A DNA stretch of 64,000 nt, taken from a bacterium. GTDB taxonomy: Bacteria; UBA8248. Location: positions 1,280,001 to 1,344,000 of the forward strand of contig OZ242260.1 in the NCBI GenBank assembly GCA_965207065.1, written 5' to 3'. Positions 9,311-64,000 of this stretch are shown here, in pieces. The first letter of the stretch is position 1, and each line of letters begins with the position of its first letter. The position numbers and the translations under genes are program-made. Below the pieces are notes generated by a model. It was given only the letters and a program-made list of their open reading frames with translations, was not told the origin of the DNA and did no database searches.

Positions 9311-9458
9311 GGTTCTGTTCTCCTTGATGAATGGATGGAATGAAAACTTCTACTGATTGAACCAATTACCTCGAACGTCAGTCGAAAAAACCGGCAAGAT
9401 TCAAATGCAGTGCACCGGACGAAGAGAGAAGTCATCCGCCCTTGGGCGCATCGTCAAA

Positions 9459-9487
9459 TTGACAGGGTTCACATGACTTTCTACAGT
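9459..9487 (+). promoter_or_regulatory. Putative sigma70 promoter of ThDP-enzyme gene
   Basis: TTGACA-17 bp-TACAGT upstream of AAGGAG RBS. Confidence 0.5.
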
Positions 9488-9530
9488 CTCATCGTATTAC
9501 TCCATATCTTATCTTACAAGGAGATGTATT

Positions 9531-42063: not shown

Positions 42064-43230
42064 ATGACAAAACGGGAGGCGTACGAGCGCATTCTGGCAT
42101 CGTTGCACGAGGCGGCGCTGGACGATACCCGCTGGTCGAATGTCTCGAAGCTGCTCGACGATACCCTCGGCGTGTACGGCAACACTATTGGGATTGGCGA
42201 CATACACTCCGGGGAGGACATCGATTACTACTACACGGGGATGTTCTTCCACGGACAACGGGACCTCGACTTAGAGCGCGAGTACTTCGACGTGTACTAC
42301 CCCCGGGACGAACGGGTCCCCCTCGTGCGGCAACTCCCCGACGGCCAATCGGCCCATATTTCCGATCTCTACACCAAAGAGGAGTTACGGACCTCCGTTG
42401 TATACAATGAATTTTTGAACCGTGCGCACGCCCAGAACTGCATCAGCTATCGCCTCGACGGACCCATGGGCTCATCCATCGCCTGGTTTATCCACGACCC
42501 CCTCGTAAGTGACGACTGGTCGTCCGCCCAACTCGACTTGATCCGGCGTCTTCTGCCCCATATACGCCAATATGTGCGCGTGCGTCAGTCGCTGGTGGGC
42601 GCCGGCGCGCTGGGTGCGTCCCTCACGGGATTGCTCGATTCGATCGGGGTGGGCGTCATCCAGCTCGACCGCCGTGGGCGGATTCTGGAAATGAATGACC
42701 ACGCCCGGGATTTGTTGCGCTCCGGAGACGGTCTATTCGACGAGCGCGGGTTCCTGTTCGCCCGAAGGCCGGAGGACGACACGCAACTCCAGCGTTTGCT
42801 GAAGCGGGCGCTGCCGCCGTTCAGGTTCCAGGGCGTCAGCGGCTCGACGACGGTGAGGCGAGCATCGGACTTCCCGCTGATGCTGCACGTCAACCCGTTG
42901 GGCGGACAAGAGAGGGACTTCCGCGTATGGCCGGTCGCGGCGCTCGTGCTGGTCGTGGACCTGGCGAGCCGTCTCCGCATCGATCCGGCCGTGGCCGAGT
43001 CGGTCCTCGGCTTGACGAAGATGCAGAGCCGGGTGGCGGTCCTTTTGGCCGAAGGCATGAGCGTCCCTGAAATCGCCGCGGCGATGGAACGAAAGCCAAG
43101 CACGATCCGCACTCACGTGAAGAACATGTCGGCGAAGCACGGTCTCTCGCGCCAGGCCGAACTGGTGGGGCTTGTACTGCAATTGGCGAACGCTCCAGAA
43201 AGTCGAGACAGAAGGCGGAAGCAGTCCTAA
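42064..43230 (+). CDS. LuxR-family transcriptional regulator with N-terminal sensor/PAS-like region
   Basis: C-terminal LT..Q.RVA.LLAEG.S..EIA......STIRTHVK....K.GLSRQAELV HTH; GGAGG RBS. Confidence 0.88.
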   Translation: MTKREAYERILASLHEAALDDTRWSNVSKLLDDTLGVYGNTIGIGDIHSGEDIDYYYTGMFFHGQRDLDLEREYFDVYYPRDERVPLVRQLPDGQSAHISDLYTKEELRTSVVYNEFLNRAHAQNCISYRLDGPMGSSIAWFIHDPLVSDDWSSAQLDLIRRLLPHIRQYVRVRQSLVGAGALGASLTGLLDSIGVGVIQLDRRGRILEMNDHARDLLRSGDGLFDERGFLFARRPEDDTQLQRLLKRALPPFRFQGVSGSTTVRRASDFPLMLHVNPLGGQERDFRVWPVAALVLVVDLASRLRIDPAVAESVLGLTKMQSRVAVLLAEGMSVPEIAAAMERKPSTIRTHVKNMSAKHGLSRQAELVGLVLQLANAPESRDRRRKQS

Positions 43231-43627
43231 ATCAGCGCCGATGTCGTTCGTTATTCCGAAAATTCCCTGGTTAATTGATTAAAATTTCGCAATATCTCCC
43301 CAGATCTGGGTAAGCGAAGACGTGTGTGAATTTTTTATAATTCAAACATCTCATCATCGACGTTGGAAAGGAGCCGGCGTGAAACTTCGTGGTGTTTGTG
43401 AGGATGTGCTCGCACTCTTGGCGGTTTCAGGTATCAACGGATCCGAGGATTGCGGATTGCAGCAGACGGGAACAAAGCAGCCGTTAAAATATTTATCGTT
43501 TTCAAAAATTCGTTCTCGCTGCTGCGCCTCGTTGTCATGGCAGCCTTCTTGACGACCTACACCCGAGATCAGTTGCGATCAACAACCGTTAGCAATACTG
43601 GATATGACCTTTGATTGGAGGTTAATT

Positions 43628-44431
43628 ATGAAAACAAGAAACATTATCTTGGTTATTTTCCTGTCCATGATTTTGTCGGCATGTTCCGGTTCATCGAATA
43701 TGTCTGCTCCGGAGGAGCCGGCGATTGACCCCTCATCAGGTTTATATAAAGTCGTCGCTCTTTCCAATTCATTAAAAACGACTAATCTATATTTTAATGG
43801 TAATCAGATTCCGCTTGAAAGTTGCGGCGGGTCAATTTGTACTGCCGAGGGCGATATTAATATACCAGTCACATTGGCAGCGAGACGTCTTGCAGATCAC
43901 GGCTTTGAAACAGAAGCGGAAATTGGCGGGGTTGAAATTGTCAGAACGGATATAGGTGATAACTGGGCGTTGCTCGGTGGATGGATGGATTATTCCGCAT
44001 TCTTTGTCGTAAAAGATTTGTTTAGAAACGATAGTTTCTTGGTTTTTTCTCAATCTATAGGTCGGTTTTATTCGATTGACGATGCTCCTTTGCCCGTAGA
44101 AGGAAGTGCTTCTTATGAAGGCGGGATGGTAGGCACAAACATCATGACAGCTGATCGCTATACAGGACAATCATCCTTGACTGCAAATTTCGGAGAAACC
44201 CCCACTATTGATATTCATTTCACCAACGTTATGAACCTGAATACTGGTGTGGCTCACTCCGATATATCATATGAGGGTGCTCCAATAAGCGAAAGGAAGG
44301 GGATTTTTAGCCAACCTTCAGACAGAAGTTATGTGAATGGTGAATTTATGGGACCGGATAACGAGGAAGTAGTCGGAGTATTTGAGCATGAAGACCTTGT
44401 CGGAGCATTTGGGGCCAAGCGCACGGAATAG
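43628..44431 (+). CDS. Surface lipoprotein with C-terminal TbpB-like barrel
   Basis: Lipobox LSAC; ends NGEFMGPDNEEVVGVF.....GAFGAKR; GGAGG RBS; AT-rich. Confidence 0.75.
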   Translation: MKTRNIILVIFLSMILSACSGSSNMSAPEEPAIDPSSGLYKVVALSNSLKTTNLYFNGNQIPLESCGGSICTAEGDINIPVTLAARRLADHGFETEAEIGGVEIVRTDIGDNWALLGGWMDYSAFFVVKDLFRNDSFLVFSQSIGRFYSIDDAPLPVEGSASYEGGMVGTNIMTADRYTGQSSLTANFGETPTIDIHFTNVMNLNTGVAHSDISYEGAPISERKGIFSQPSDRSYVNGEFMGPDNEEVVGVFEHEDLVGAFGAKRTE

Positions 44432-45215: not shown

Positions 45216-45453
45216 ATAGACTGGCGCCATGCCGGGAAACAAACCGCCTGGAACTTTGCGCCCCGGTGTGAGACAGATTCGTCAACGGATCCTGGGCGTT
45301 GCCGTAGGGTGTAGCCGGACGACAAGTCATCGCCCCGAAAAAAATGTTGAGTCGGCTTTTGAATGCGCTATATGATGAATGAGTACTTCAACGACATCAT
45401 AGCGGCATGGAGATGTGTTTAATAAGGAAGATCCGTACCCGGAGGATGACTCG

Positions 45454-48400
45454 ATGAGCACAGGCGGAAATTTCCGTTCTTCCGAACTACCGCAAACCGG
45501 CGCGCAGGCGTCTTCCCGGCCCGGAGAACCCATAGCCATCGTGGGCATGGCGTGCCGGTTTCCCAACGCCGTCGGTCTCCCGGCCTTCTGGCGTCTGCTC
45601 GAGGCCGGCGAGAACGCCGTGACCAGGGGAGATCCGGGTTCGGGCGTGGGGCGCGTGGGCGTGCTTTTCCCCGACGCCGAAATCCAGAGTGAGGCCTGCC
45701 GTTTCGGCGCCTATCTCGAAGATATCGACCAGTTCGACGCCGCGTTCTTCCGCATATCGCCCGTCGAGGCCCAACTCCTGGACCCCCAGCAGCGGCTCAT
45801 GCTGGAGACGAGCTGGCGCGCGCTCGAGGACGCAGGCATGGACCCGGAGCGCCTCAGGGGCAGCCGCACCGGTGTGTACGGAGGCGTCAGCAACAACGAA
45901 TACCGAAACCTGATAATGGACGTCAGCGATACCGCGGAGCCCGCCACGAGCCTGTATACGGTCAGCGGCACCTCCTTCAATACGGCCGTCGGGCGGGTCT
46001 CCTTCGCGCTGGGCTTCGAGGGACCGGCGATTGCGCTCGATACCGCCTGTTCCTCATCGCTTGTCGCGATTCACCAGGCTGTGGCGGGCTTACAAAGGCG
46101 CGAAGCCGATCTGGCCCTGGCCGGAGGCGTGCACACGATCCTCTCGGGCCGACTGCTGGAGTTGCGCGGCAACGCCGGGATGCTCTCGCCCGAGGGGCGA
46201 TGCGCGACGTTCGACGCCGCCGCGAACGGGTACGTGCGGGGCGAGGGCTGCGGAATCGTTGTGCTCAAGCGTCTCGCCGAGGCGGAGGCGGACGGCGACC
46301 GCATCTGGGGCGTGATTCGCGGGTCGGCCATCAACCAGGACGGCGCGAGCCCGGGACTGACGGTGCCGAGCGGCGCGGCGCAGGAGCGGGTGATCGCGGA
46401 GGCGCTCTCGCGGGCCGGAATCAGGCCCCATGAAGTGGATTACCTCGAAGCGCACGGGACGGGTACGGAGGTGGGCGACCCGATTGAGCTGGAAGCGGCG
46501 GCGGCGGCATACGGCAAGGGACGCGCGGCGGACCGCCCGCTATTAATCGGTTCGGTCAAGACCAACATCGGACATCTCGAGTCCTCAGCCGGAGTCGCCG
46601 GCCTGATCAAGGCGACGCTGGCCCTGAAGCAGGGGGTGATCCCCAAACACCTGCACTTCCGGGAGCCTACTCCGGCGGTGGACTGGACGCGAATGTCCTT
46701 GCGAGTAACGGCGGAGGCGACGCAGTGGCCGCGCCATCCCGAACATCCCCCTCGGGCGGGCGTAAGCGGGTTCGGATGGTCGGGCACGAACGCCCACGTG
46801 ATCGTGGAGAGATACGAAACGCAGGAGGGGGATTCCACCGTCGGTGCGATGAATGAACCCGTGGGTTCCGCACTGCCTGTCGCCGTTTCCCCGCCCGAGC
46901 CTGCGGCGGACCCGCCTAAGGCGAGTGATGGGCTCTTAAAGCGCAAAGCACGGATTCTTCCGCTCTCGGGCAAATCGGAGGCTGCGCTTCGCGACCTTGC
47001 GGGGCGGTATCTCTCCTGGCTCGATGAGCGCGAAGAAGCACTCGCTCCCGAAAGCGCCGCGTCGGAGCCGCTGCTCTCGAACATGGCGTGGACGACCGCG
47101 GTGGGGCGGAGCCATTTCACGCACCGCGCGGGTCTCCTCTTCGGCGACGCCGCGCGGCTGCGCGAGGGGTTGAACGCTCTGGCCGAAGGCGGCGAAGCGC
47201 CGGAAGTGCGGACGGCGACCAGGGTAGCGTTCCTCTTCACCGGTCAGGGCAGCCAGTGGGTCGGCATGGGAGGAGACTTGTACGAGACGGAACCGGTGGC
47301 GCGGGCGGTTCTCGATCGTTGCGAGGAAGTCGTTCGCGAGCAAAGGGGCGCCTCGCTGCTGGATGTCATGTTCGGGCGCAGTGAGGGGAATCTGAACGAC
47401 ACCGTCTGGGCGCAGCCGGCCATCTACGCGATCGAGTGCGCCGTCACGGCGCTTTGGGCAAGCCTGGGGGTACGCCCGGACGTGGTGGTGGGACACAGCG
47501 TTGGCGAGTTCGGGGCGGCGCATGCGGCGGGGGTGTTCGGGCTCGAAGACGGAATGCGGGCCGTCATGGGGCGGAGCGAAATTCTGGCGTCGGCGCCGGA
47601 GGCCGGGACGATGGCGGCCGTATTCGCTTCTTACCCGGCAGTTGAAGCGGCGGTGCGCGAATACAACGAGTCGGCCGGGAGCGAGAGGCTTGCGATTGCG
47701 GCGAGAAACGGGGCGCACCAAGTGTTGAGCGGTCAGGTTTCCGCTGTCGAGGCGGTCTCGGAGCGCTTCGAGGCCGAAGAAGTACGGGTGAGGCCGATCA
47801 ACACGAGCCAGGCGTTCCACAGCCCTCTGGTGGAGCCGGGCCTGGATGCACTGGAAGCGCTTTTCGAGAGCGTACGGATAGCGCCTCCCTCGCTCGCCAC
47901 GCTGGTGAGCAACGTGACGGGCCGTGTGGTGGAGCCGGACGAGGTGCTCGGCGGAGGATACTGGCGCCGGCACGCCCGCGAGGCGGTGGCCTTCGACCGC
48001 GGCGTCCGCACGCTGGCGAACCTGGGCGTCGACCTGGTGGTGGAAGTCGGCCCGCACGCGGTGCTGGGACCGATGCTGTCTCTCGCCTGGCCGGGGCCGG
48101 ATGAGGGAGGGGATGACCTTGTCGGGGATGTCGAGGCTCCCCGTGTGTTGGCGAGTCTGCAAAGACCCTCGCAAGACGAGGAGAAACCGGCGGACGAGAT
48201 GGAAACAAGTTTCCCGGGCGCGGTGGCGGGGGCCTATGAGGCGGGGCTCGACCTCTCTTTCCAGGGATTGTTCGCCGGTGAAGAGCGGCGCCGCATCTCG
48301 CTGCCGGGCTATCCCTTCCAGCGCGAACGCTACTGGGTCGAGGCGCCGAAGCGGCGGCGGCGGAGCGTAGGCCTTCCCCTGCTGGGCGAGCGGCATGAAT

Positions 48401-51400
48401 CCGCCAGCGGCGAGATCACGTTCGAGACCGAAGTGCTCCCCTCGGACCCGCCGTGGATGACGGATCACCGGGTGTTCGGCCGGGTCATCGCACCGGGCGC
48501 GCTTTATGGAGCCATGGCGATCTCGGCATCCACCGCCGAGGGAAGCGGTTCGATGCTGGTCGAGGACATGCAATTCCACAACGCGTTGATCTTCGGTGAG
48601 GAGGATTCAGAGGGCGGCGGCGCGGGGCGGGAAGTGCAGGTTCTGCTCGATGCTCCGGGGGATGAGCCCTCGCGCCTCGTGCGGATATTCAGCAAAGGAG
48701 AGGCCGGGGAGGATTGGACGCTGCACGCGGAGTGTCGCGCGCCCTCGGGTGCGAACGCGCAACAGGCCACGGAGCAAGTGGACCTGGAAAGCATGAAGGC
48801 CGGTTTGACACCGGAGGACGTGCCGGCGTTTTACCGCGCCAAGGCGGGTGTGGGGATCGATCTCGGCCCGTCGTTCCGCACGCTGGGGCGTGTGTGGTCG
48901 CGGCAGGGCGAGGCGCTGGGCGAGGTGTACTTCCCCGAGGCGTTAGGCGCGAACGCTCTCGACGTGCACCCCCTCCTGCTCGACGGCTGTTTCCAGGTGA
49001 TGGGCGCGGCGCGCAATCCGGGCGGCGCCGAAGACGGCATCACCTACCTGCCGTTCGGCTGGGAGCGGCTGTGGCTGGCGGACCGGCTGCCGGATCGGCT
49101 TTTGTGCCACGTGCGTATGAGAGAGGCTCCGACGAGCCAGGAGCCGAGCGCCGAAACCGGTGTGGGGCCAGAAGTCTTCGTCGGCGATTTCCGTCTTTAT
49201 GATACGACCGGCGTGCTGGTCGGCGAGTTGAGCGGTTTCATGGTGAAGCGCGCGACGCGGGCGGCGCTGCTCTCGGCGTTGGAAGGCTTGGACGATCTTC
49301 TCTACGAAGTGGTTTGGCGCGAAAGCGCACTTGCGCCCGGTATGCTGCCTGCGGATTTCTTCCCGAGTCCGGGGGAGATAGCCGAGCGCTGGGGGCCGTT
49401 CTCCGACTACCTGGCGGCGGAAGGGGTCGACGCCTCATTGAGGCCCGCATTGCTGACGGACCTCTCGTGCATGGCGCGGCATTTTGCGCTCTCGGCCCTG
49501 GAGAAGCTCGGATGGGAACGGAAGGCGGGCGCTGTAGTGGACACAGAAGATCTGCGCTGGCGCCTGGGGGTCAAGGATGAACACGGCAAACTGTTCCGCC
49601 GGATGCTCGAGATATTGGCGGGGGCCGGCGTTCTGGAGGCGGCGGGTGATGGTTTCGTCGTCGCCGTAGGGGCCGGAGCGCCATTGCCGGAAGGAATTCC
49701 CGGCGATCCAGAAGAATTCGCGGCCGGGGTGAGCGAGCGTTATTCGTATGCTTCGAACGAGATCGGGCTGTTTCGAAGAAGCGCGGGCGCCCTCGCCGAA
49801 GTGCTTCGCGGCGAGGAGGACCCGCTGTCGCTCCTGTTCGGCAGCGGAGAACCGAGCGCCGCGGACCTCTACTTCAAGGCGCCGGTATGGCGTGCGGCGA
49901 ACCGGATGCTGGGAGACGCGGTACGCACCCTCGTCGCCGGGTTGCCCGAAGGACGCCGCCTGCGGGTGATCGAAGTCGGCGCGGGCACGGGGTCGGCGAC
50001 CGAATCCGTCCTGCCCGAGCTTCCCGAGGGGCGCTTCGACTACACCTACACCGACATCTCGGCGGGCTTCTTCGCGCAGGCGGAAGGGCTGTTCAGCGAC
50101 GGCGGCGGGTGCATCGATTACCGGGTGTTGGATATCGAAAAAGACCCGGTGGCGCAGGGCTTCGACTTCCATGGCTATGACCTGGTGATTGCCTCGAACG
50201 TGCTTCACGCCACGCGGTACCTGGAGGAGACGCTCACGCACTGCCGGGCGCTTCTCGCGCCGTCGGGACATCTCGTGGCGCTCGAGAACCTTTGCGGCCA
50301 GGATTGGCTGGATATGACTTTTGGACAACTGGACGGCTGGTGGCGGTTCGCCGACGAGCGCCGCCCCACCTACGCCTTGGCGGGGCCGGACGTTTGGCGG
50401 CATTCCCTTGATGCCGCGGGTTTCGAGGGAATGGAGATTCTGGGGCTGGGCGGGTCCGATTCCGCCGAGATGCCGGACAGGGGTGTGATACTGGCGCAAC
50501 TGCCCGAGGAGGTGGCCGAGCGTCCCGGCGTATGGGTTCTGGCGGCGGACCGCGGCGGCGAAGCCGAACAACTGGCGGCGGAATTAGCGTCGCGCAACCA
50601 GACGGTCGTGCTGGCGAGCGAGGCGGGCTCGACGAACGGGAGTGCTGCGGACGAAAAACCCGGAGTCATCCATACGTCTGTGGAGATGGATAGCCGCGAG
50701 TCCTGGGGAGTGCTGCTGGAGGGCCTGCCCGGAGATGCGCCGCTCAGCGGCGTCGTGCACCTCGCGGCGCTCGACGGCCACGGCCCCGGTGCGACGACCG
50801 AGGAGATGGCGGAGGATGTGAAACGGGTGGGCGCGAGCGCATTGGCCCTGGCGCAGGGGCTCCTGGACGTCGACGCGGCGCCCGGGAAGGGATTTTGGTT
50901 CCTCACGCGGGGCGCGCAGGTGCTGGAGCGCGAACGCGGTGGTGAGCTTGCCGGCGCGACGCTATGGGGTTTCGCTAAAGTGGTGGCCCGGGAAGCGTCC
51001 CACATGGAGCCGAAGTTGATCGATCTGGACCCTGAGCCGACTGCTCCGCCGACGGATATCGCCAATGAACTGCTCTATCCCGATACGGAAAATCAAATCG
51101 TCCACCGCGGCAACAGGCGCCGAGTGGCCCGTCTGGTCCGGACCGGCGAGGGAGCGGAGCGGCTGGCCTTCCCCGAAGAGACGGGCTGGCTGCTGGGTGT
51201 CGGCGAAGAAGGCGCGCTCGACGGCCTGCAGGCGCCGCCGCCGCCGCTCGAGCCGCGAGAAGTCCGCGTGGCCGTCGAGGCCGCCGGGCTCAACTTCTGG
51301 GACGTGTTCGCGGCGCTCGGCCTGATTGACGAAAAATTCCTGGGCACGGAGATGTGCGGCCATATCCTCGAGGTCGGCTCCGAGGTGTCGAGCGCCTCTG

Positions 51401-54400
51401 TGGGCGACCGCGTGGTGGGCGTGAAGCGCGGCGCGCGCGGTATGTTTGGGCCGGAATCCGTGACGCATGAGGATTTGGTGGCGCCCGCGCCGGCGGATTT
51501 ATCGGCCACGGCGCTCGCCACGATACCGACGGTGTTCCTGTCCGCAGCGCTGTCTTATGAACTCGCGGGGCTGAAAGCAGGCGATCGGGTGCTGATTCAC
51601 GCGGGCGCGGGCGGCGTGGGGCTTGCGGCCATCCAGTTGGCGCAGGCGGCGGGAGCGGAAGTGTTCGCGACGGCGAGCGCGCCGAAACAGGGTTACCTCC
51701 GCTCGCTGGGTGTGGAGCACGTATTCGACAGCCGCCAGACGAAATTCGGGGAAGAAATCCTGGAAGCCACGGGCGGCGAAGGCGTCGACCTTATCCTGAA
51801 CAGCCTGACGGCGGAGGGCTTCATCGACGCGTGCCTGTCGTGCCTGGCGGAAGGGGGCCGGTTCGTGGAACTGGCGGCGCGCGACATTCTGAGCGAGGAG
51901 GAGATGGCGGCGGTACGGCCGGACGTGGCCTATTACATCGTGAAGCTCGACGCCATGAAAGAAGATGAGCCGGAGCGGCCGGGGGCCTTGCTGAGAGAGG
52001 TCATGGAGCGGGTGGCGGCGGGAGGACTGAAGCCGCTCGTCCACACCAGGTGGCCGATGGCCGAGGCGAGGCAGGCCGTAGAGTTCATGCGCGACGGACG
52101 CCATATCGGAAAAATCGTCTTTGCGAATTCGCCGCTCACCAGGGGCCGCTTGCGGGAGGACAGGACCTACCTCGTCACCGGAGGCCTGGGCGGCATCGGG
52201 TGCGCCGTGGCCGGCTGGCTCGCCGAAAGGGGTGCCGGGGCTATCGTGCTAAATGGCCGGCGGCCCCCGGACCCGGAAGTCGAGGAAGCGGTCGAATTGT
52301 TGCGCAAGCGCGGGTTCACGGTGCAGGTGCAGCTCGCGGACGTGACGGACCCGGATGCGGTGGACGAGATGCTCGTGCGGATGGATGCGGAGTTGCCGCC
52401 CCTCGGCGGCGTGATCCACAGCGTGGGGGTGCTCTCTGACGGCGCGCTCGGGAACCAGAGCTGGGAGAAGTTCGAGCAGGTGCTTTGGCCCAAAGTGCTG
52501 GGCGCATGGCGCCTACACCGCGCGACGATGACTCGCGATCTGGACATGTTCGTCCTCTTCTCGAGCGCGGCCGGCGTGTTGGGCAACCCGGGCCAGGCGA
52601 ACCACGCGGCGGCCAACGCGTTCCTGGATCAACTCGCCGTCCACCGCCGGGCGCTGGGACTCCCGGGCCAGGCCATCGCCTGGGGCGCGTGGTCGGAGAT
52701 TGGCGAAGCCGAGGAGCAGCGGGAGAGAATCTCCAGAAGTATCGAAGTAACGGGAGTCGGCTGGATGACACCGCAGCAGGGGCTCAGGGCATTCGACCGA
52801 CTGGTTCGCGAGGACGCCGCGAATTCCATGGTTCTGGCGAGGGATTGGTCCGTATTCGAAAAGACTCTGGATAACATTCCCCCGTTTTTCGAAGACCTGC
52901 TTTCCTTCACTCAAGACGCAGAGTCCGACTCGCCCGCCCTGGCGGAAGACCTGTTGTCCCGACTGGCGGAGACGCCCGCTGCGGAGCGCGAGGCCCTGCT
53001 GGTGTCGTTCCTGCAGCAGGAACTCCAGGCGGTGCTGCGGCTGCCGAGCACGCCCGAACCCACGGTGGGATTTTTTGATCTCGGCATGGACTCGCTCATG
53101 GCCGTGGAACTTCGAAACCGGCTGAACCGCGCGTTCACGGACGCCTATACGGCCCCGAACACCGTGGTGTTCGACTATCCAGACATCGCGGTGCTCGCCC
53201 GTCATCTGGCCGGCGAACTCGGCGACCTCGGCCCCGCGCCCGCCCCTCAGGCGCAACCCGAGCCGGAGCGTCGGCCCGCCGCGCCGCGCAAGGAGGAGCA
53301 GATCGCGGTCGTCGGCATGGCGTGCCGCTTCCCGGGCGCGCCCGACATTTCCGCCTTCTGGCGTTTGCTCGAAGCGGGCGTCGACGCGGTGACGGACGGG
53401 CGGCGCGATTCCGGCCCCTGGAGCGGCGTCGCCGGAGACCCCGAAGCCGAGGAAGCCGTCTACCGTCGAGGCGGGTTCATCGAAGGAATCGACTTATTCG
53501 ACGCACGTTTCTTCGGCATCAAGCCGATCGAGGCGTGGATGATGGACCCGCGCCAGAGGATGTTGCTGGAAACGAGCTGGGAGGCGCTCGAGGACGCAGG
53601 CATCGACCCCGCACCGCTCAAGGGTACTCGCGCAGGAGTATATGTCGGGCTGGGCGGCAGCGAGTACCGGGACCTGGTAACGGCCAGCGGCCTGGAGGAC
53701 AGCTATCTCGGCACCGCCCCGAGCGTCACCATCGGGCGGGTCGCCTTCGCCCTCGGTCTGATGGGGCCTGCGGTGCCGCTGGACATGACCTGCGCATCGT
53801 CGCTTGTGGCGGTGCACCAGGCGGCCGCAGCCCTCCGGCGAGGCGAGGTGGACCTGGCTCTTTCCGGAGGGGTAAACGCAGTGCTGTCCCTCCCGATTAC
53901 GAAATTCATGGCGGAGTTCGGCATGTTGTCGCCGAGCGGTCTGTGCCGGACCTTCGATGCGACTGCGGACGGCTTCGTTCGCGGCGAGGGCTGCGGCATC
54001 GTGGTGATGAAGCGGTTGAGCGACGCGGAGGCGGACGGCGACCGCATCTGGGGCCTGGTGCGGGGATCGGCTGTCAACCAGAACGGCGCGAGCGCCGCGC
54101 TGACGGTGCCCAACGGTACGGCGCAGGAACAAGTGCTCGAAGATGCGCTCGCCCGGTCCGGTTTTCCGCCCTCGGAAGTGGATTATCTGGAAGCGCATGC
54201 GACGGGGTCGCAACTGGGCGATCCGATTGAGGTGCGCGCATCGGCGGCGGTGTACGGGCGAGGACGCACGGCGGACCGCCCGCTCCTGCTCGGCACGGCG
54301 AAGACGAACATCGGCCATCTGGAGTCGGCCGCGGGAATCGCCGGCCTGATCAAGGTATTGCTGGCGATGAAGCATGGAGTCATTCCCAAACACCTGCATT

Positions 54401-55842
54401 TCGATAACCCGAATCCGCACATGGAGTGGGACGCGCTACCGGTTCGGGTGACTTCTGAAGCAATGGAATGGCCGGCTGCCGCCGCTCACCCGCACCGCGC
54501 GGGGGTGAGCGCATTCGCCCTTTCGGGGACGAACGCGCACGTCCTGGTGGAGGGGTATGGCGCGCCGGAGAGCGACCCCGCGGCAGGTGCCGGGCGGGGT
54601 TCCCCTGCGGGTTCAGCGCAGCCTGTCGCCGTAATGCTGCCGGAGTTGGTCCCGGAATCGCCGACGGCGGAGGGGTTACGCCCGCGCCGGATGCGGATGC
54701 TTCCGCTATCGGGCAAATCGGGCGATGCGCTTCGTAAACTGGCGGAACGGTATCTCTCCTGGATGGACGAGCGCGCTGAGGAGCTTTCCGCCGAAGACGC
54801 CATGCAGTCCGTATTGCCGGACATGGCATGGACGGCGTCCGTGGGGCGGAGCCATTTCGCGCACCGCGCGGGCGTCGTATTCGAGGACGCAACGTCGTTG
54901 CGGGAAGGATTGAGAGCGCTTGCGGAGTCAGACGAGTTCCCGAAGCCGCGGGCTGCGGCGCGGGTGGCCTTCGCATACGCCGGAGAAGACGGCATTCAGG
55001 TCGGCTTGGGTGAGGCGTTGTATGAGAGCGATCCGGTGGCGCGTGCGGTTCTGGACCACTGCGACGATGTGCTCCGGGTGGAGCGCGGCGCTTCGCTGCT
55101 GGACGTGATGTTCGGCCGCACTGGAGAACTGGACGACCCGGGGTGGGCGCAGCCGGCGGCCTTTGCGCTCGAATGTGCGCTCACGGCGCTTTGGGCGAGC
55201 GTCGGGATTCGGCCGAACGTGGTGTTCGGGGCAGGCGCGGGAGAGATAGCGGCGGCGCATGCGGCGGGCGTGTTCAGCCTGGAGGAGGGCTTGCGTTTCG
55301 CCGCAAGGCGCGGTGCGCTGATGGAGGCGCTCACGGGAGGCGAAGGACAGGAAGCGGCGCTCGACGAACTGGAAACGGCGCTCGAGGGCGTCGTAACGGC
55401 GTTGCCTTCACTTACGCTGGTGAACCAGGTGACAGGCCAGGCCCTCGGCCCGGGCGAAACGATGGATGCGGCGTACTGGCGACGACAAGCGCGTGAGCCA
55501 GCGGCGTTCGAGGGATGTGTGGGGACGCTCACGGAGTTGGGGGTGGAGGTCGTCGTGGAGATCGCCGTGGACTCGATATTGACGCAGCGGGTGGCATCGG
55601 CCTTGCCAGGGCCTGGAGGCGACGAAGGAGCGAGCGGGAATGGCGCCGCGCCGCCGGTGGTGTTTTCGAGCATAAGGCAATCGTCTGTAAGTGAGCACGG
55701 TTTCGTCGAGGCGGTAGCGCGGGCGTATGAGGCGGGACTCTCGATCGATTTTGCTTGGCTGTTCGCCGGAGAGGAGAGGCGGCGGATCTCGTTGCCGGGC
55801 TACCCGTTCCAACGCCTGCGCTTCTGGTTCGATGCAACTTAA
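45454..55842 (+). CDS. supA: Type I polyketide synthase SupA: KS-AT-DH-MT-ER-KR-ACP-KS-AT(inactive)
   Basis: KS1 DTACSS/HGTGT/NIGH; AT1 [60 protein letters not shown]2 DMTCASS/HATGS/NIGH; AT2 GAGAG. Matches the sponge-symbiont ubiquitous PKS architecture. Start placed at ATG 45454 after GGAGG. Confidence 0.93.
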
Positions 55843-56314: not shown

Positions 56315-57055
56315 ATGTCTGCTGACGCCCTCGATTCCTGGTTCCGAACGTTTCATGAAATGGATGACATTCTCGTCGTGCATGTCGACCTGACGCCTCA
56401 TGAGGCTCGCGAGGCGCACGCTTTTGCCTGGCTTGACGAGAAAGAACGGGCTCGCTGGCGCCGATACCGATATAACCGCCCCCGGGGCGAATTCACCCTG
56501 TGCCGCGGGGCGCTGCGCTCCATACTTTGCTCCCGGCTCGGGTGCAAGAACGAACGTCTCTCGTTCGACGTATTGAAGCATGGGAAACCGTTCGCGCTGG
56601 TGGACGGAATTGCGGCTCCCGTCAGCTTCAACGTCAGTCACGGCGGCAAATATGGATTGATAGCGCTTGCGCCGCAGGGGCGGCTCGGCGTGGACGTGGA
56701 GGAGCGCGTCGCTCGCTTCGATCTCGATGGAATGAGCGAGTTCGTGTTCAGCCCAGGCGAGCAAGCCGACTTCGCAGCGGTGCGTGGACAAGTAAAATTT
56801 CATTTGTTCTTCACGCTCTGGACGCTCAAAGAGGCGCTCATCAAGGCCCTCGGAACGGGGTTTTCCCTGGATCCGTCCCGGTTTGAAATTCCATCGGCCA
56901 TGCGGCGAGGCGCAAGAAAGGGCATGTTCCGATTCCCCCACATACCGGATGTCGGGTGGAGACTCGAAAATCTGGGCAATCCGGATTTCGCCGCCGCCAT
57001 CGCCTATGAAGCGGATCTAGCTCTCGTTCGGGGGGCGAGCGAGGGGTCTCGATGA
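56315..57055 (+). CDS. supC: Sfp-type 4'-phosphopantetheinyl transferase
   Basis: GKP, FNVSH, LGVDVE, WTLKEALIKALG.G. Confidence 0.92.
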   Translation: MSADALDSWFRTFHEMDDILVVHVDLTPHEAREAHAFAWLDEKERARWRRYRYNRPRGEFTLCRGALRSILCSRLGCKNERLSFDVLKHGKPFALVDGIAAPVSFNVSHGGKYGLIALAPQGRLGVDVEERVARFDLDGMSEFVFSPGEQADFAAVRGQVKFHLFFTLWTLKEALIKALGTGFSLDPSRFEIPSAMRRGARKGMFRFPHIPDVGWRLENLGNPDFAAAIAYEADLALVRGASEGSR

Positions 57056-57966
57056 CGAATTCGGAAAAAATATGGGAGATCCCCGAACCGCTCTCCGTTC
57101 ACGAAATTCAGATGGAAGACGAGACCGTCATCATCCTGCGGTGCCACGGGAATCCGGCGGGCCCCAGGCTCGTTCTGAGCCACGGCAACGGTCTCGCGAC
57201 CGATCTCTACTACCCCTTCTGGTCATTGCTCACTGAGGAATTCGATCTGATCCTGTATGACCTGAGGAACCATGGCTGGAACCCCGTCGGTCCGCAAAGA
57301 GGACATAACCTCCCTTCCTTCGTCGATGACCACGACCGCATTCTCGAAGAAATCGACTCAGAGTACGGTGAGAAGCCGAAAATCGGCGTGTTTCACTCCG
57401 TTTCGGCGTTGACTTCGCTTCTCTCGCCCACCCATGGCAGCGGGTTCGCGGCGCGCGTTCTGTTCGATCCACCGGTGTGCAAGCCCGATGATTACCCCGA
57501 AGAGTTCGACGTGGCCACCAGGCGAATTTTCGAGATGACCCTGCGCCGCACCGAAAAATTCAGTTCCATCGAAGAATGCGCGGATTTCCTGCGCTACATG
57601 CCAGCATTCAGCCGCGTCGTTCCTGGAATTCGTAATCTCTTTGCAAGGACGACGCTTCGTGAATCCGCAAACGGGCGGGGTTATGAACTAAGGTGTCCCC
57701 GCGAGTACGAAGCGCAGATCATCAACCACGCCAGGGCTTTCGCCGTATGGGTGGATTTGGATTCGCTTCACTGCCCGACGAAAGTCATCGGCGCCGACCC
57801 CATCCTGCCGTACTCGTTCCTGCCGACTTTCGACCTGAGTCATATATCGAGCGTGGACTATGATTTCCTGCCCGATGCGACGCATTTTCTTCAAATCGAA
57901 CAACCCGAGGAATGCGTAGAAGTTGTGCGGGAGTTTCTCGAGTTTCACGACCTCCTGAATCCGTGA
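57052..57966 (+). CDS. supD: Alpha/beta hydrolase
   Basis: SHGNG oxyanion motif, YDLRNHG, FHS nucleophile, THFLQ His; ATGA overlap with PPTase. Confidence 0.85.
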   Translation: MTNSEKIWEIPEPLSVHEIQMEDETVIILRCHGNPAGPRLVLSHGNGLATDLYYPFWSLLTEEFDLILYDLRNHGWNPVGPQRGHNLPSFVDDHDRILEEIDSEYGEKPKIGVFHSVSALTSLLSPTHGSGFAARVLFDPPVCKPDDYPEEFDVATRRIFEMTLRRTEKFSSIEECADFLRYMPAFSRVVPGIRNLFARTTLRESANGRGYELRCPREYEAQIINHARAFAVWVDLDSLHCPTKVIGADPILPYSFLPTFDLSHISSVDYDFLPDATHFLQIEQPEECVEVVREFLEFHDLLNP

Positions 57967-58030: not shown

Positions 58031-59761
58031 ATGAGTTCGAAAGATTCGGGCCTCCGCTATCAGGCCGACGAAAAACCACCGGTAACACTCGCCTTCGGCC
58101 TGGGTCTGCAGCTCACCGCTCTCAGCGTATCCGCTACGATATTGATTACGACAGTCATCATGCGGGCCGCCGGCCAAAGCGAAGCCTATCTGGCATGGGC
58201 CGTGTTCACCGCCGTCGCGATCGGAGGCGCCGCCACGATGCTCCAGGCGCACCGGCTCGGTAGATTCGGCATGGGACACGTGCTCATGATGGGCAGTTCA
58301 GCGGCCTTCATCGCGGTCGGCATCGAGGCGCTTACGAAGGGCGGTCCCACCACCCTCGCCACACTGGTAATCGCCTCGGGGCTCTTCCAGCTCGTCATAT
58401 CCGACAGACTCTCGTTGTTTCGGCGGATCCTGACACCGGCCGTCTCGGGAACGGTGCTCATGCTGATACCGGTTTCGGTGATGTCGGCAGTTTTCAATCT
58501 GCTGAAGGACGTCCCGCAGGGAAGCCCGGTTATCGGCGCTCCGCTGAGCGCGCTGGCGACTGTGCTCGTCATATGCGGCCTCACGCTCAAGGCGAGTGGA
58601 ACGCTTCGCCTCTGGGCGCCTGTCATCGGCGTTCTCGCAGGCTCGCTCGCCGCCGTCTTTTTCGGTATTTACGACACGGCGCGCGTCGTAGAAGCCTCGT
58701 GGGCCGGTTTGCCCCCGGTCGAATGGCCGGGCTTCAATCTGCGATTCGGGCCGGTTTTCTGGTCGCTTCTTCCGGGGTTCCTGCTGGCGGCCACCATCGG
58801 CTCCATCCGGACGATCAGCAGCGCCGCCGCCGCTCAACGCGTCTCCTGGCGCGGGCCCCGGGCGGTGGATTTCCGGGACGTGCAAGGCGCTGTGGCCGCT
58901 GACGGTCTGAGCAATCTACTCTCCGGCCTCGCGGGAACGGCGCCGAACACATCCTACACGACTGGCGCATCCCTGGCCCAACTCACCGGAGTCGCGAGCC
59001 GACACGTCGGGATAGCCGCAGGCGCGGTGTTCCTGGCGCTGGCGTTTCTGCCGAAGGCGCTCGCACTGATGCTGGCGATACCGGGGCCGGTCTTCGCCGC
59101 TTTTCTTCTCATCATGATCGCTATGCTCTTCATGGTCGGTGTGCAGATGATTCTTCAGGACGGGGTCGACTACCGCAAGAGCCTGATCGTCGGCGTCTCG
59201 TTCTGGCTCGGCGTGGCTTTTCAGAGCGGCGTCATTTTCCCGGAGTTTTTCTCGAAATTCGCGGGCGGCCTCATGAACAACGGCATGACGGCCGGCGGCA
59301 TCGTCGCCATCCTCATGACCCTGTTCGTGGAGATCACCGAACCCCGCCCCAGCCGAATGGAAGCGCCGCTCGACACCTCGTCCCTACCGGGGTTCAGGGA
59401 GTTTCTCGGCCAGTTCGCCACCAAAGGCGGCTGGGACGAGGCGATGTCGAAACGCCTGGGCGGCGTCTGCGAGGAGATTCTGCTGACGCTGCTCGGGCCG
59501 GACGAGGGAGAGGAGCAAAATGGAGGGTGGCTGGTGTTGCTCGCGAAAAAAGACGGCGCCGCAGCGGTTCTCGAGTTTATCGCCGCGGCGGGTGAGGCGG
59601 GGAATCTCGAGGATCGAGTCGCGCTGCTCGGTGAGCAGGCGGAAGATACCCATTTGGAGGAAGAAGTATCTCTGCGGCTTTTGCACCATCACTCGGCTTC
59701 GGTTCGCCACCAGCAATACCACGGGGTGGACATCGTGACCGTCCGCGTGGAAGCGCCATAG
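58031..59761 (+). CDS. supE: Xanthine/uracil (NCS2)-like permease with soluble C-terminal extension
   Basis: Y..DEKPP...GLQ start, many TM helices, GAV.ADGL.N.LSGL.G. Confidence 0.82.
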   Translation: MSSKDSGLRYQADEKPPVTLAFGLGLQLTALSVSATILITTVIMRAAGQSEAYLAWAVFTAVAIGGAATMLQAHRLGRFGMGHVLMMGSSAAFIAVGIEALTKGGPTTLATLVIASGLFQLVISDRLSLFRRILTPAVSGTVLMLIPVSVMSAVFNLLKDVPQGSPVIGAPLSALATVLVICGLTLKASGTLRLWAPVIGVLAGSLAAVFFGIYDTARVVEASWAGLPPVEWPGFNLRFGPVFWSLLPGFLLAATIGSIRTISSAAAAQRVSWRGPRAVDFRDVQGAVAADGLSNLLSGLAGTAPNTSYTTGASLAQLTGVASRHVGIAAGAVFLALAFLPKALALMLAIPGPVFAAFLLIMIAMLFMVGVQMILQDGVDYRKSLIVGVSFWLGVAFQSGVIFPEFFSKFAGGLMNNGMTAGGIVAILMTLFVEITEPRPSRMEAPLDTSSLPGFREFLGQFATKGGWDEAMSKRLGGVCEEILLTLLGPDEGEEQNGGWLVLLAKKDGAAAVLEFIAAAGEAGNLEDRVALLGEQAEDTHLEEEVSLRLLHHHSASVRHQQYHGVDIVTVRVEAP

Positions 59762-60060: not shown

Positions 60061-60288
60061 ATGTCGACAACACAGACCCGCATCAAACAAATCGTTGCGC
60101 ACACTCTCGACCTCGACCATGAGCTGGATTTCAATGCCCAGCTCAGCGAATCAGAAGTTACCTCAATGGAGGCGGTCGCTTTCTTCAAACTGGTCGACAA
60201 GCAGTTCGGCCTTGAGTTGGCCATAGAGGACTTCGCGAAGTTCCAGACCCTGCAGGATATCGTAGAACATATCGACGCACGCGGCTGA
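60061..60288 (+). CDS. Second stand-alone acyl carrier protein (SupB paralogue)
   Basis: 75 aa; SEVTSMEAVAFFKLV..QFG..L...D...F.TL.D aligns with supB. Confidence 0.8.
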   Translation: MSTTQTRIKQIVAHTLDLDHELDFNAQLSESEVTSMEAVAFFKLVDKQFGLELAIEDFAKFQTLQDIVEHIDARG

Positions 60289-60679: not shown

Positions 60680-61855
60680 TCAGGAGCTGTCTGCGGTCGT
60701 GGCGTCCCGCGCGGCCAACCTCTTGTCGACTATCTCCTGAAACACCATCAAGAGCCCTTCCTCGAGACCCAGCATGTGGGTTTCGTTGACTCCGTTCATC
60801 AGGTTGGCCTGAACCCGTTCCGCCATCGTGTAATCTTCGTCGTCTAAAAAGACCTCCGTGTAGAGGAGGCGGTTGCGCAACGCTTTCTCCCCCGACTCCC
60901 CGACGTATTTATCGGGAAGATAGAGCAGTTCCTGCGACCAGAGCGTTCTATCCGGAGCCAGCGGCAGGAACCTGGTGATTAAAATATTGTCATCGTGCAC
61001 CATGATGATCGTGTTGGGGAACAGAACATAAAAAAGCACTGCGAAGTCGAGCAGCTTTTTCTGTTTCTCCGGGACGTTTTCCGCATCCAGCAAGTTTGTT
61101 TTTCCGCCCATAACGCGCAGATGAGGCCCCTCCGCGTCGAAAGAAAGAAAACCTTCGCGGAAATACGGAGCCAAGGTTCCTTTGTGCAGATGCGCAACGT
61201 GGTAGCCTTCCAGGTTCATATGAACAAGAAGCTTCCAGTTGGCCTTTTTCTCCGTCACGACCCTTTCGTAGCTGACGAAACGCTCAATATGGAACTCCGC
61301 GAAATCTTCCGCGTAAGCGCCCAGATACTGAGCCGGATCGAACGGTTCATGCCGAGTCGGGTGAACCCATACGAATCCCGCGCTCTCCGCCACCGAACAC
61401 TCTTTCAGGCCGTAGTCCCGTTTGTCGAGGCAAGGAAAGGCGAATGACCTCGGAATTCCGCGCAGCGCGCCGTCCAGGCCATATGTCCACCCGTGAAACG
61501 GGCAAACCAACGCCCGTAACGGTTCGTCGTTCTCCCTGACAATAAGCGGCGCCCCCCGATGGCGGCAGGTGTTAAGAAATGCCCGAAGCACGCCGTCTTC
61601 GCCCCGGACGACGAAATACGGCTGGCGCGTCCAGTCGCTGAGCATGTAAGAACCAGGCTCACGAACGCTGTCCACGTGCCCGGCCATTAACGGGCTGTCG
61701 AAAAACAGCGTCTCGAGCTCGCGTTCGAAGATCTCCTGGCTGGTATAGACGTCCAGGGGCAGACGCAAGACCTTGTCGCTAATGAACTGGTCTTCGCGTC
61801 GCTTGCGTAGTTCAACCATTCTGTCGAGCAACGCCATCTGACGCTCGCGTTTCAT
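60680..61855 (-). CDS. Rieske non-heme iron oxygenase, alpha subunit
   Basis: CRHRG...CPFHGW Rieske ligands; NWK...EGYHVAHLH and ED mononuclear Fe ligands; start 61855. Confidence 0.92.
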   Translation of the reverse strand: MKRERQMALLDRMVELRKRREDQFISDKVLRLPLDVYTSQEIFERELETLFFDSPLMAGHVDSVREPGSYMLSDWTRQPYFVVRGEDGVLRAFLNTCRHRGAPLIVRENDEPLRALVCPFHGWTYGLDGALRGIPRSFAFPCLDKRDYGLKECSVAESAGFVWVHPTRHEPFDPAQYLGAYAEDFAEFHIERFVSYERVVTEKKANWKLLVHMNLEGYHVAHLHKGTLAPYFREGFLSFDAEGPHLRVMGGKTNLLDAENVPEKQKKLLDFAVLFYVLFPNTIIMVHDDNILITRFLPLAPDRTLWSQELLYLPDKYVGESGEKALRNRLLYTEVFLDDEDYTMAERVQANLMNGVNETHMLGLEEGLLMVFQEIVDKRLAARDATTADSS

Positions 61856-62318
61856 CGTTCCACGCGCTCCTTTGGTTGAGGTCGAAAGTCTCGTTCGTGC
61901 ACTCCAGCCCGTTTTGTTCACGGCGCGTGTCGTATCCTGGAGGCCGTTCAGCCGCAGATCATCGCAATGGCATGGTAATTTTATACCAAATATTCTTATA
62001 TTACCAGTAATAAATGCGCTACGCGACTATGATTCACAATAGTTTTCTCCCGTTCGCTCTGCAACCCGTCAAACGAAAGACGGCGAACTCCGATCCCGGG
62101 GGTGGCCCGATCTTTCCGCGCAGCGACCGGATTCTGGTTCGCGGGGTGTAGGCTCGGAATGGGCGTGGCAGCGGATCGAAGAGAGGCAAGGTGTCCGGGG
62201 TGCGCGATTCGATGGATGGTGAGCACGGCGCCGGGAGGGCTGTCGAGGAAGTTTGGGGCGAAGCGTCCACACGAGCGTTGCCCTTCAATCGCGCCGGAGC
62301 AGTTGCTTCAAGCGGTCT

Positions 62319-63296
62319 TCAACCGGCCCGGGGAGAGCGTTCGCGCCGGATCGTACGACGGTCGCGGTCGTCGAAAAAGGCGCATTCCGCGAGAAGGTCG
62401 CCGTCGCGCGCGCCGGCTTCCGCGATCTCGATATGCTGCCGGGTGAACGGTTTATACGGGAAGAACCCCTTCCCGTACTTTTCCACGGGGTATTCGAGGT
62501 TTTTCGCCCGCTTGAGGTCGTAGTGCGAGCCCGCATCAATGAAGCGCATCACGTAGGCCGCGCGCCTGGGAAGCGCTCCCTCACCGAGCATGATGCTCCG
62601 GTGGACGACCATTTTGTTGAACAGGAGCACGTCGCCGGGCTGGAAATCGTCTTCGACCTGGTGACTCTCGAATATCTCGCACATGGTCGGTGAATTGAGG
62701 ATGCCGATACGCAGGGCGAAGTAATCATTTATGCTCGTCCTGACTCCGGCTTGCTCCTTGGCCTTCAGCGTCGAGACAATCGCCGGCTCCAGCTGGTTGT
62801 AGACGAAATCGGACGATACGACGTTCTGGGGGACATAAGCCATCCCGCCCCTTTGGCCCTTCGTATCCACGGGATGCAGCGGCGCCCACAGCGTGGACGC
62901 GAATTCCTCAGCGAACTGATAGCCGAAACTCTCCACGCCGACATGCCAGGGAAGCCCCTTGTTGACGTTCTTTTCGATCTCGAAGCACAGTTCGGTGATC
63001 AGGAAGAGGTCGCGTTCGGCCAGATCTGTCAGAGCCCGCCGGAAGTAAGGGCGCGCCATCAGTTCATAGACTTCCGATTTATCCGTCTCGAAGTCATACT
63101 TCGCTCGGGTGAAGAGTTTCTCGACCTTGAAATTTTCGGGGGCGCCCCGGTTCATTTCGACTTCGATACGCTCAAGCAGCGCCTCGACCACGTCGGCGTT
63201 CAGGAACCCTTCCAGTTTGACGAAGCCGTCGCGCTGAAACTTCTCCTTCTGCTCGGGGGTGATGTGGAACTCGGTGTCAAATGGATGACTGGTCAT
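62319..63296 (-). CDS. PhyH-like Fe(II)/2-oxoglutarate enzyme with HxG motif (candidate halogenase)
   Basis: F.RDGFVKL start, WHVG, WAPL, GGM, GDVLLF...VHRS, R.AY..RF. Confidence 0.8.
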   Translation of the reverse strand: MTSHPFDTEFHITPEQKEKFQRDGFVKLEGFLNADVVEALLERIEVEMNRGAPENFKVEKLFTRAKYDFETDKSEVYELMARPYFRRALTDLAERDLFLITELCFEIEKNVNKGLPWHVGVESFGYQFAEEFASTLWAPLHPVDTKGQRGGMAYVPQNVVSSDFVYNQLEPAIVSTLKAKEQAGVRTSINDYFALRIGILNSPTMCEIFESHQVEDDFQPGDVLLFNKMVVHRSIMLGEGALPRRAAYVMRFIDAGSHYDLKRAKNLEYPVEKYGKGFFPYKPFTRQHIEIAEAGARDGDLLAECAFFDDRDRRTIRRERSPRAG

Positions 63297-64000
63297 GTTT
63301 GAGTCCTCTTTCGTGATATGCATTTTGAGTAAATCCGGTCGAGCAGAATCAAATTAGCACAACAAGGCGGCGAGGGGATAGTTCTTTGTGAGCCGGGGCG
63401 GGAAGGGTCTTTCCGCTGCGATTCGCCGGATGACCGAGCGGCACGGGAGCATCCGTTGCGAGCGATTCGAGGCGTGGTGAGCGCGGCGAGAAAGCAAGAG
63501 CGCCGTGCGGCGTCCCCCCGTCGAACCTCGCGGCCTCGCGTCGTGCGGAGGCCGCGCTGGTTCCAGGGACGCCGTTCATGGGTAAGGTGGCTTCGGGGGG
63601 GATTCGGACGCGGGACGCCGAATCAGGGATGAATGATTCCGTCGAAGCAGGCAGTCCCTCTTGCCGCCACGATATCCAGATTGTCGGCGGATGACCGGAA
63701 TTCCGCTGGTCATTCCATGCGGATATCACTGGCCACATATTGAATTTGACCGACCTCTTTTCATGGGCCGCACCGAAACACCGAGCACATGGCATCGCGA
63801 TGTAGCGCTATACATGCTCGGGAAATTCTTGCAATATAGAACCATGGCATGCAGTCCACCGGGACGACGACCGACGTAAACGGTCGAGTAGACCGGAAAG
63901 CTGCATGGTAATTGCGCGACGAGAAAAATGCCGTGACAAGGGTAATGAACCGGTTCGATGATGGGTGGTACGGTGCCCGCGCCGCGTTCACGCTGAACCG

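Follow-up and report, generated by a model that had tools for sequence, protein, structure and literature searches.

A PhyH-fold protein beside a SupA-type polyketide synthase falls in a polyketide-linked sister clade of the halogenase BtnX

What does a predicted iron enzyme do beside a large polyketide synthase (PKS), and to which molecule does it do it? The question is raised by a gene on the minus strand of a 64,000-nucleotide stretch of contig OZ242260.1 (GCA_965207065.1; lineage UBA8248), the whole of which we call the window; the predicted product of this gene at 62319..63296 (P0001) is referred to as the window protein. In the list of open reading frames (ORFs) the gene runs over 62319..63323 (minus strand) and encodes 334 amino acids (aa), with the stop codon at 62319-62321, and translation from the ATG at 63296 gives 325 aa. 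We take 63296 to be the right start because the N-termini of homologues (M-[TS]-S-H-P-F-D) match it and because AGAGGA lies just upstream; the ATG is preceded by AAAGAGGA. The protein contains the motif L-P-W-H-V-G-V-E-S-F. An earlier, sequence-only reading of the window had singled out a PhyH-fold protein whose first iron motif is W-H-V-G, with an intact distal His (VHRS) and downstream Arg. Both observations hold: codons 62937-62945 encode H-V-G (H118 at 62943-62945, V at 62940-62942, G120 at 62937-62939), and the distal His and the Arg are H232 and R251, in columns that are invariant across 41 aligned sequences.

The PhyH/double-stranded beta-helix fold is a prediction from sequence, with a modest Pfam match (PhyH PF05721, 29.6 bits, E 1.1e-6, residues 20-157); a profile search of the window protein against NCBIfam matched no model, and close relatives are named 'phytanoyl-CoA dioxygenase family protein' in the databases. 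HxD/E members of PF05721 have a carboxylate iron ligand, which the window protein lacks. The ratio of non-synonymous to synonymous substitution rates (dN/dS) against relatives is 0.18-0.43, and the gene is therefore under purifying selection. A scan of 61700-63900 for consensus promoters and terminators gave no promoter-like and one terminator-like hit (on the other strand, inside the gene), no more than in shuffled controls.

A sequence search of the PDB returned BtnX as the top match (9pv1_A, E 7.2e-139), aligned over residues 1-318 versus 3-309 and ungapped around the motif, and the two proteins are 65-67% identical over their whole length. Residues H118, G120, S123, H232, R251 and Y67 of the window protein pair with H115, G117, S120, H229, R248 and Y64 of BtnX, whose numbering we checked on the D. 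shibae gene itself. Across a table of 23 clade sequences, Y64, H115, S120, H229 and R248 are kept in every one and G117 in 22. From the network that holds the substrate carboxylate in BtnX (Y64, Q119, S120, R248), the window protein retains Y67, S123 and R251, with E122 at the position of Q119.

BtnX is Dshi_3684, encoded on the 'killer plasmid' pDSHI01 of Dinoroseobacter shibae next to a biotin energy-coupling factor (ECF) transporter (PDB 9PV1, 9Q04; Kipouros & Chang, Nature 2026; PMC13489965). Passages of that paper describe a crystal structure in which a 2His-1Gly iron site is seen with Fe, Cl, 2-oxoglutarate (2OG) and biotin bound, the formation of 2R-chlorobiotin, the transfer of Br- and N3- as well, and a tolerance for many carboxylic acids, with alpha-chlorination of biotin and of free fatty acids including octanoate (PMC13489965). 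They further report that G117D/E substitutions abolish halogenation and turn the enzyme into a hydroxylase, and that the BtnX subfamily was delimited by a finer sequence similarity network threshold of >50% identity, which the window protein passes (PMC13489965). The suggestion that replacement of the carboxylate by Gly marks a radical halogenase is thus supported by the alignment, by the level of identity and by the switch seen in G117D/E, and the assignment of the window protein as a 2His-1Gly Fe(II)/2OG halogenase-type enzyme of the BtnX family is as well founded as sequence allows. The same reading had not recognised such a route to halogenated lipids as described, but the alpha-halogenation chemistry on biotin and free fatty acids has been in print since 2026 (PMC13489965), so that both the kind of enzyme and its chemistry are already described via BtnX.

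The second PDB match was the CurA halogenase domain (CurA Hal; PDB 3NNF, E 2.3e-24), over residues 88-264 only. SyrB2, BesD and WelO5, which the sequence-only reading had offered as comparators, have Ala or Gly in place of the carboxylate that binds iron. The mechanistic principle that they share with the window protein stands, but a detectable sequence relation does not, as none of the three is among the 7 PDB matches at E<=10; they are other branches of the superfamily, and BtnX and CurA Hal are the relevant comparators. AspX of Vibrio campbellii, compared here by its published description, targets C3 of L-aspartate for chlorination and accepts few substrates (PMC13489965). BtnX and the window protein are alike in their PhyH fold, their 2His-1Gly motif and their free-standing form of ~310-325 aa. 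They differ in their neighbours, which are a sup PKS, an acyl carrier protein (ACP) and a Rieske oxygenase in the window as opposed to bioY-ecfA-ecfT, in the Glu that stands for Gln119, and in three insertions of the window protein (+3 aa in the 48-60 loop, +5 after EKYG, and +3, AEA).

The insertions extend to a whole clade. A careful IQ-TREE analysis of 37 rows, rooted on three relatives of 37-39% identity, placed the window protein within a clade of 28 sequences (ultrafast bootstrap 100, SH-aLRT 99), of which 22 are PKS-linked (three second paralogues included) and 6 unlinked. All four bioY-linked sequences lie outside this clade, at the base, and a quick tree concurs; the window protein thus goes with the sister clade rather than branching with BtnX. 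The +5 insertion after EKYG is present in 28/28 clade members, in 0/4 bioY-linked sequences and in 0/15 more distant relatives (two CurA-like sequences among the 15 carry a different 3-residue insert at this site), and its absence from both of the latter groups marks it as derived. The +3 (AEA) insertion is present in 28/28 members against 0/4 bioY-linked sequences, and the loop at BtnX 48-60 is 1-11 residues longer in all 28 members than in the four bioY-linked sequences. Residues 50-57 and 275-276 of BtnX are described as neighbouring loops near the 2OG site (PMC13489965); the clade insertions match these loops, so the active-site entrance has been remodelled in the clade.

The genomic surroundings divide in the same way. 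Roseobacteraceae plasmids carry a btnX-bioY-ecfA-ecfT cassette, whereas no BioY was found in the window genome (96% complete), no bioY-ECF transporter in the window or the 14 kb beyond it, and no BioY near any of 7 unlinked loci (91 ORFs scanned). There are two genomic contexts and two clades, one coupled to the sup PKS and one linked to bioY. This bears on the idea that the window protein is a biotin halogenase like BtnX, which would yield a biotin antimetabolite and whose place beside the sup cluster would be incidental. With its high identity to BtnX, the same catalytic residues, most of the carboxylate-binding ones and a Km of BtnX for biotin of <2 uM (PMC13489965), such a role has points in its favour. 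We nonetheless rate it the least probable of the alternatives weighed here, given the missing BioY, the position of the four bioY-linked sequences outside the clade, the three clade-specific entrance insertions, the change of Q119 to E, and the co-occurrence with SupA described below.

To quantify the tie to the PKS, we collected 22 related loci from species-representative genomes with 10-kb flanks and counted linkage by tblastn with the window proteins. The record titles of these loci name Nitrospinota, Arenicellales, Ca. Poriferihabitaceae, Dehalococcoidia, Longimicrobiales, Ca. Palauibacter, Acidimicrobiales, Bryobacterales, Acidobacteria and Gammaproteobacteria. A SupA-type PKS (54-85% identity) lay within 10 kb in 13/22 loci, and 7/22 had none; the other two, L005 and L007, are on short contigs, both with the Rieske gene and L005 also with the hydrolase and ACP genes. 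The PKS-linked loci show at least seven gene orders, among them the halogenase gene directly upstream of the PKS (L014, L019-L021); PKS then halogenase (L022); PKS, hydrolase and permease followed by the halogenase (L015); halogenase, ACP, hydrolase (L013); halogenase, SulP transporter, P450, hydrolase, PKS (L012); and the convergent layout of the window (L003-L008). Linkage that is kept through such rearrangement argues for function and not for a single frozen transfer, and it spans at least six phyla.

Co-occurrence was closer still than linkage. The six intact copies that lie away from a PKS are all in genomes with a SupA-type PKS elsewhere (55-71% identity), and the L005 and L007 genomes carry theirs on other contigs, so that an intact halogenase gene and a SupA-type PKS were found together in 21/21 genomes. 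The one remaining copy, L023 (10001-10732; G015:C1:3313510-3314244), has an in-frame TAG after 8 codons and its match ends at residue 244-245; its genome is the sole one of the set with no SupA-type PKS match, and the gene looks like one that decayed after loss of its PKS partner. Of 23 genomes in the window's genus, 11 have a SupA-type PKS, with the halogenase in 8 and without it in 3; of the other 12, one has the halogenase alone (the broken copy) and 11 lack both, counts that are descriptive since the genomes are related; the halogenase was found in 0/78 genomes outside the genus. PKS orthologues of 54-85% identity occur in metagenome-assembled genomes (MAGs) titled Nitrospinota, Gemmatimonadota, Acidobacteriota, Actinomycetota and Pseudomonadota, in agreement with the spread of sup PKSs over phyla of sponge-associated bacteria described in passages of PMC9426513.

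A metagenome scan gave 80 loci, 8 of them at >=63% identity to the window protein. Three of these eight are linked to bioY-ECF (L027, L029, L031), three to a PKS (L026, L030, L032), one has PPTase (phosphopantetheinyl transferase) and ACP genes on a short contig (L033), and L028 is too short, so that 3-4 of the 7 informative loci show PKS/ACP linkage. The 72 loci at <=49% identity have neither a SupA-type PKS nor BioY; in one of them, L103, the PKS query aligns over 239 aa at 26% identity. The proposed tie of the enzyme to the sup locus, for which linkage of homologues to PKS/ACP genes had been named as the check, is borne out by these counts in both collections (13/22 species genomes plus the two on truncated contigs, and the metagenome loci). 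Separately, in two gammaproteobacterial MAGs (L009, L010 at 6700-9580) the halogenase gene has no PKS at its side; its neighbours encode a second PhyH protein, this one canonical (135 bits), as well as a TauD-family dioxygenase and an EamA transporter, which makes a cluster of three Fe/2OG enzymes.

The iron motif itself is well kept. Few proteins belong to the family, 170 representatives at E<=1e-3 out of 1.84 billion, yet close relatives abound in metagenomes, with 288 clusters at E<=1e-20, the best 120 of which are 65-88% identical to the window protein. For the window protein and these 120 closest clusters, HxG was read in 109/121, HxD/E in 6/121, and 6/121 fell outside the motif pattern; HxG is therefore not a product of chance, and conservation among homologues, which the sequence-only reading had wanted surveyed, came out in its favour. 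Siblings of predicted hydroxylase type do occur naturally inside the family, with further HxD/E examples in L014, P0016, P0022, P0025 and P0026. The L014 protein (10001-10978), encoded immediately 5' of a SupA-type PKS, is naturally HxD (WHVDVRSF), and its closest relative, L013, is HxG, which appears to reflect a recent switch between halogenase and hydroxylase types within one sup-linked lineage.

One residue next to the motif sets the window protein apart. At the position of BtnX Gln119, 115 close sequences with the motif read have Gln (105), Asn (4), Glu (2), Pro (2), Tyr (1) or Leu (1), and the two Glu carriers are the window protein and P0153, which is 85% identical to it. The codon for this Glu is genuine: runs X1 and X2, possibly from the window's own source sample, yielded short-read contigs identical to the window over 61900-63400, Glu codon included, and in run X9, a sponge metagenome from another study, relatives show either C (Glu) or G (Gln) at 62933. 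Farther out in the clade, two sequences have Arg here and eight have Asp, the latter combined with S231G. The eight (L016-L022 and L024, from Acidobacteriota, Gemmatimonadota and a gammaproteobacterial MAG) form a subclade with Asp119 and Gly for Ser231, and their near-identity across phyla points to recent horizontal transfer.

Glu122 might alter the chemistry of the enzyme, either by binding iron or blocking the halide site, with hydroxylation as the result, or by switching the preferred head group to a neutral or cationic one. The rarity of Glu at this site, the Asp at the same site in the S231G subclade, and the existence of natural HxD/E siblings, one of them (L014) beside a PKS, lend this some weight. 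In BtnX, however, Gln119 hydrogen-bonds the substrate carboxylate and is no iron ligand (PMC13489965), and Gln and Glu are isosteric, for which reasons a ligand role of E122 is unlikely. The polymorphism with Gln in another metagenome and the sharing of Glu with P0153 fit a tolerated variant, and the gene is under purifying selection. We therefore regard altered chemistry through Glu122 as improbable; it is plausible, though, that the residue influences the choice of head group.

With family membership, catalytic residues, clade and linkage observed, what remains is the reaction in its cellular setting, and here we lean, at a little better than even chances, towards the reading that the window enzyme alpha-halogenates a carboxylic acid from the sup pathway, a free acid released by the hydrolase and given Cl or Br at C2. 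An acyl chain would be built on SupA and the discrete ACP, and the alpha/beta hydrolase would free it as a carboxylic acid, a role proposed for the hydrolase because SupA has no thioesterase domain. H118 and H232 would hold the iron, with 2OG as co-substrate. With G120, the coordination site taken by a carboxylate in hydroxylases would stay free, chloride or bromide would bind there, a ferryl intermediate would abstract hydrogen, and the halogen would rebound onto the substrate radical, at C2 of the free acid as in BtnX. We infer the substrate, the position halogenated, and halogenation over hydroxylation as the outcome.

The gene neighbourhood from which this pathway is drawn is given in Table 1. 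The PKS is a small type I enzyme with one fully reducing, C-methylating module according to the domain search, which found no ACP or thioesterase after the second KS-AT; this C-terminal KS-AT is a 59% identical copy of the protein's own N-terminal KS-AT. The discrete ACP may serve this second module. The genes from PKS to ACP, on the plus strand, are convergent with the halogenase gene, the spacer and the Rieske gene on the minus strand, and beyond the halogenase lie housekeeping genes (subtilase, cyclophilin, RecR, DnaX).

Table 1 Features of the halogenase gene and the sup-type locus, in window coordinates
Feature	Position	Strand	Basis or remark
SupA-type type I PKS, KS-AT-DH-MT-ER-KR-ACP-KS-AT, 3475-aa ORF	45415..55842	+	domain search
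Sfp/HetI-type phosphopantetheinyl transferase (PPTase)	56315..57055	+	Pfam, NCBIfam
Alpha/beta hydrolase, likely chain-releasing enzyme (inferred)	57052..57966	+	Pfam, tblastn
NCS2-family permease, C-terminal extension with no Pfam match	58031..59761	+	Pfam, NCBIfam, tblastn
Free-standing acyl carrier protein	60061..60288	+	PP-binding 39 bits; kept in 9/22 loci
Rieske non-haem iron oxygenase alpha subunit, on the halogenase strand and downstream of that gene	60680..61921	-	conserved partner in closest relatives
397-nt non-coding spacer, halogenase to Rieske gene	61922..62318	.	
Halogenase gene, 325 aa, predicted PhyH-fold Fe(II)/2OG enzyme, BtnX family, sup-associated sister clade	62319..63296	-	Pfam, PDB search, tree
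R251 in YVMRF (= BtnX R248), 2OG and substrate-carboxylate hydrogen-bond network	62544..62546	-	alignment and BtnX paper
H232 in VVHRS, distal iron-binding His (= BtnX H229)	62601..62603	-	alignment, invariant column
E122 codon GAG, at the BtnX Gln119 position, 1 base from CAG (Gln), rare variant	62931..62933	-	alignment
H118-V-G120, HxG iron motif (= BtnX H115-x-G117)	62937..62945	-	alignment

The presence of a discrete ACP and a PPTase in the cluster raises the alternative that the substrate is an ACP-tethered intermediate, as for CurA Hal, carried on the free-standing or the SupA ACP, with the clade loops as a docking surface. CurA Hal resembles the window protein as an HxG Fe/2OG halogenase with a WHVGV.SF motif in a PKS setting, and is the second PDB match. 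It is a domain within a megasynthase acting on an ACP-bound substrate (PMC13489965), however, whereas the window protein is free-standing rather than a domain of a PKS. CurA-like sequences are only 26-29% identical to it, against ~65% for BtnX, and have Gly at position 119, where the sup clade has Q, E, D or R. The retention of Y64, S120 and R248 counts towards a free acid to a lesser degree, since CurA-like sequences mostly keep these residues as well (of the two in the table, one has His at Y64). The BtnX paper places its enzyme at the junction between ACP-dependent and free-substrate halogenases, and notes that some members of cluster X co-cluster with ACP genes while many in the BtnX subfamily do not (PMC13489965). 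Together with the ACP gene that adjoins the halogenase in L013 and L030, and with the derived loops at the active-site entrance, this keeps an ACP-bound substrate in consideration; we think it unlikely, and a free acid from the sup pathway remains our preferred substrate.

The Rieske gene suggests another pairing, in which the halogenase and the oxygenase would act together on a small imported acid unrelated to the polyketide, with the NCS2 permease as importer. In the window and in L003-L008 the two genes lie side by side in the same orientation, the permease is conserved in the cluster, and the best matches of the Rieske protein in the PDB and NCBIfam are carnitine and glycine-betaine monooxygenases, far below family cut-offs. 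The partnership is, however, limited to the window's genus and weak (28%) look-alikes in L015 and L030, whereas the PKS linkage crosses at least six phyla; a P450 replaces the oxygenase in L012, and in L014, L019-L021 and L032 the halogenase gene stands directly beside the PKS with no Rieske gene. This makes a small imported acid a very improbable substrate.

Several points weigh against alpha-halogenation of a free sup-derived acid. The gene lies away from the PKS in six genomes and is absent from 3/11 SupA-bearing genomes of the genus, which makes it an accessory and not a core gene, and transfer of the whole cluster means that the genomes are not independent. E122 takes the place of the residue that contacts the substrate carboxylate in BtnX; its negative charge could work against a carboxylate head group or change how iron or halide binds, and since position 119 varies within the sup clade (Q, E, D, R), head-group recognition may differ from that of BtnX. 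The cluster has a discrete ACP, and CurA-type relatives act on ACP-bound substrates. Finally, the 'sup' label is drawn from distribution and from the architecture of the window PKS, which is that reported for SupA (Fieseler 2007); the names of PKS homologues are generic only, with no 'SupA' among them.

Some further features of the locus merit record. The permease, whose C-terminal ~140 residues have no Pfam match, recurs at 43-86% identity in sup-type clusters from three phyla, and L012 has a SulP-STAS transporter instead. At 61930-61990 (minus strand), shortly before the start of the Rieske gene, the spacer, otherwise 58% GC, is AT-rich and holds a partial inverted repeat, TTACTGGTAAT...ATTACCA, which may be a promoter or operator of the Rieske gene. 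Upstream of the PKS, 40916-44431 encodes a 383-aa ORF with no Pfam match, a PAS-LuxR regulator (42064-43230) and a TbpB-type beta-barrel protein (43604-44431). Where the window has the 397-nt spacer between the halogenase and Rieske genes, its nearest relatives have a second halogenase paralogue or only ~25 nt. L003 (8991-11011), L004, L006 (10001-12020), L007 and L008 encode two halogenases in tandem, paralogues A (325 aa) and B (336 aa), with the Rieske gene immediately after them. These paralogues are 77-78% identical to each other, and both have HxG and Gln119. The single copy of the window has a C-terminal tail like that of A and groups with B in the tree (80/93 support). We considered the spacer 61922..62318 as a remnant of a second halogenase copy and rejected this, as blastx and blastn gave no significant similarity to the halogenase or to the relatives' loci.

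Our literature searches found no published link between the sup cluster and a PhyH enzyme or halogenase, and the passages of sup papers that they returned mention no halogenase or dioxygenase in or beside the cluster. The main text of the BtnX paper contains neither 'polyketide' nor 'sponge', and its supplements on genome neighbourhoods may show such neighbours (PMC13489965). As far as these searches reach, what is new is a sister clade tied to the PKS, the signatures that mark it, and its almost invariable presence alongside SupA-type PKSs across phyla.

The products of sup PKSs have so far only been proposed, as mid-chain-branched fatty acids. It is possible, and we put it forward tentatively, that the sup-associated clade is a missing sup tailoring enzyme and that the abundant sup products are alpha-chloro or alpha-bromo (methyl-branched) fatty acids, whether as end products or as reactive intermediates. 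If so, halogenated intermediates could lead to alpha-hydroxy and alpha-methoxy fatty acids, both of which are described from sponges (PMC3826128). The variable position 119 and the three entrance loops would then mark a shift of substrate away from biotin, one that horizontal transfer inside sponges would have carried into at least six phyla. In surveys of PKS genes from sponge microbiomes the sup type predominates, with >99% of ketosynthase amplicons in one study (passages of PMC4245539). A conserved accessory halogenase leads to a concrete prediction: specific lipids should carry a Cl/Br isotope signature, which mass spectrometry can look for in sponge extracts and after heterologous expression. 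Enzymologists gain from the clade dozens of natural variants of BtnX, a promiscuous biocatalyst, with differing entrance loops, differing residues at position 119 and HxD siblings. The label 'biotin halogenase' is also to be qualified for the family, since in the data searched the PKS-linked form outnumbers the bioY-linked one, which is basal.

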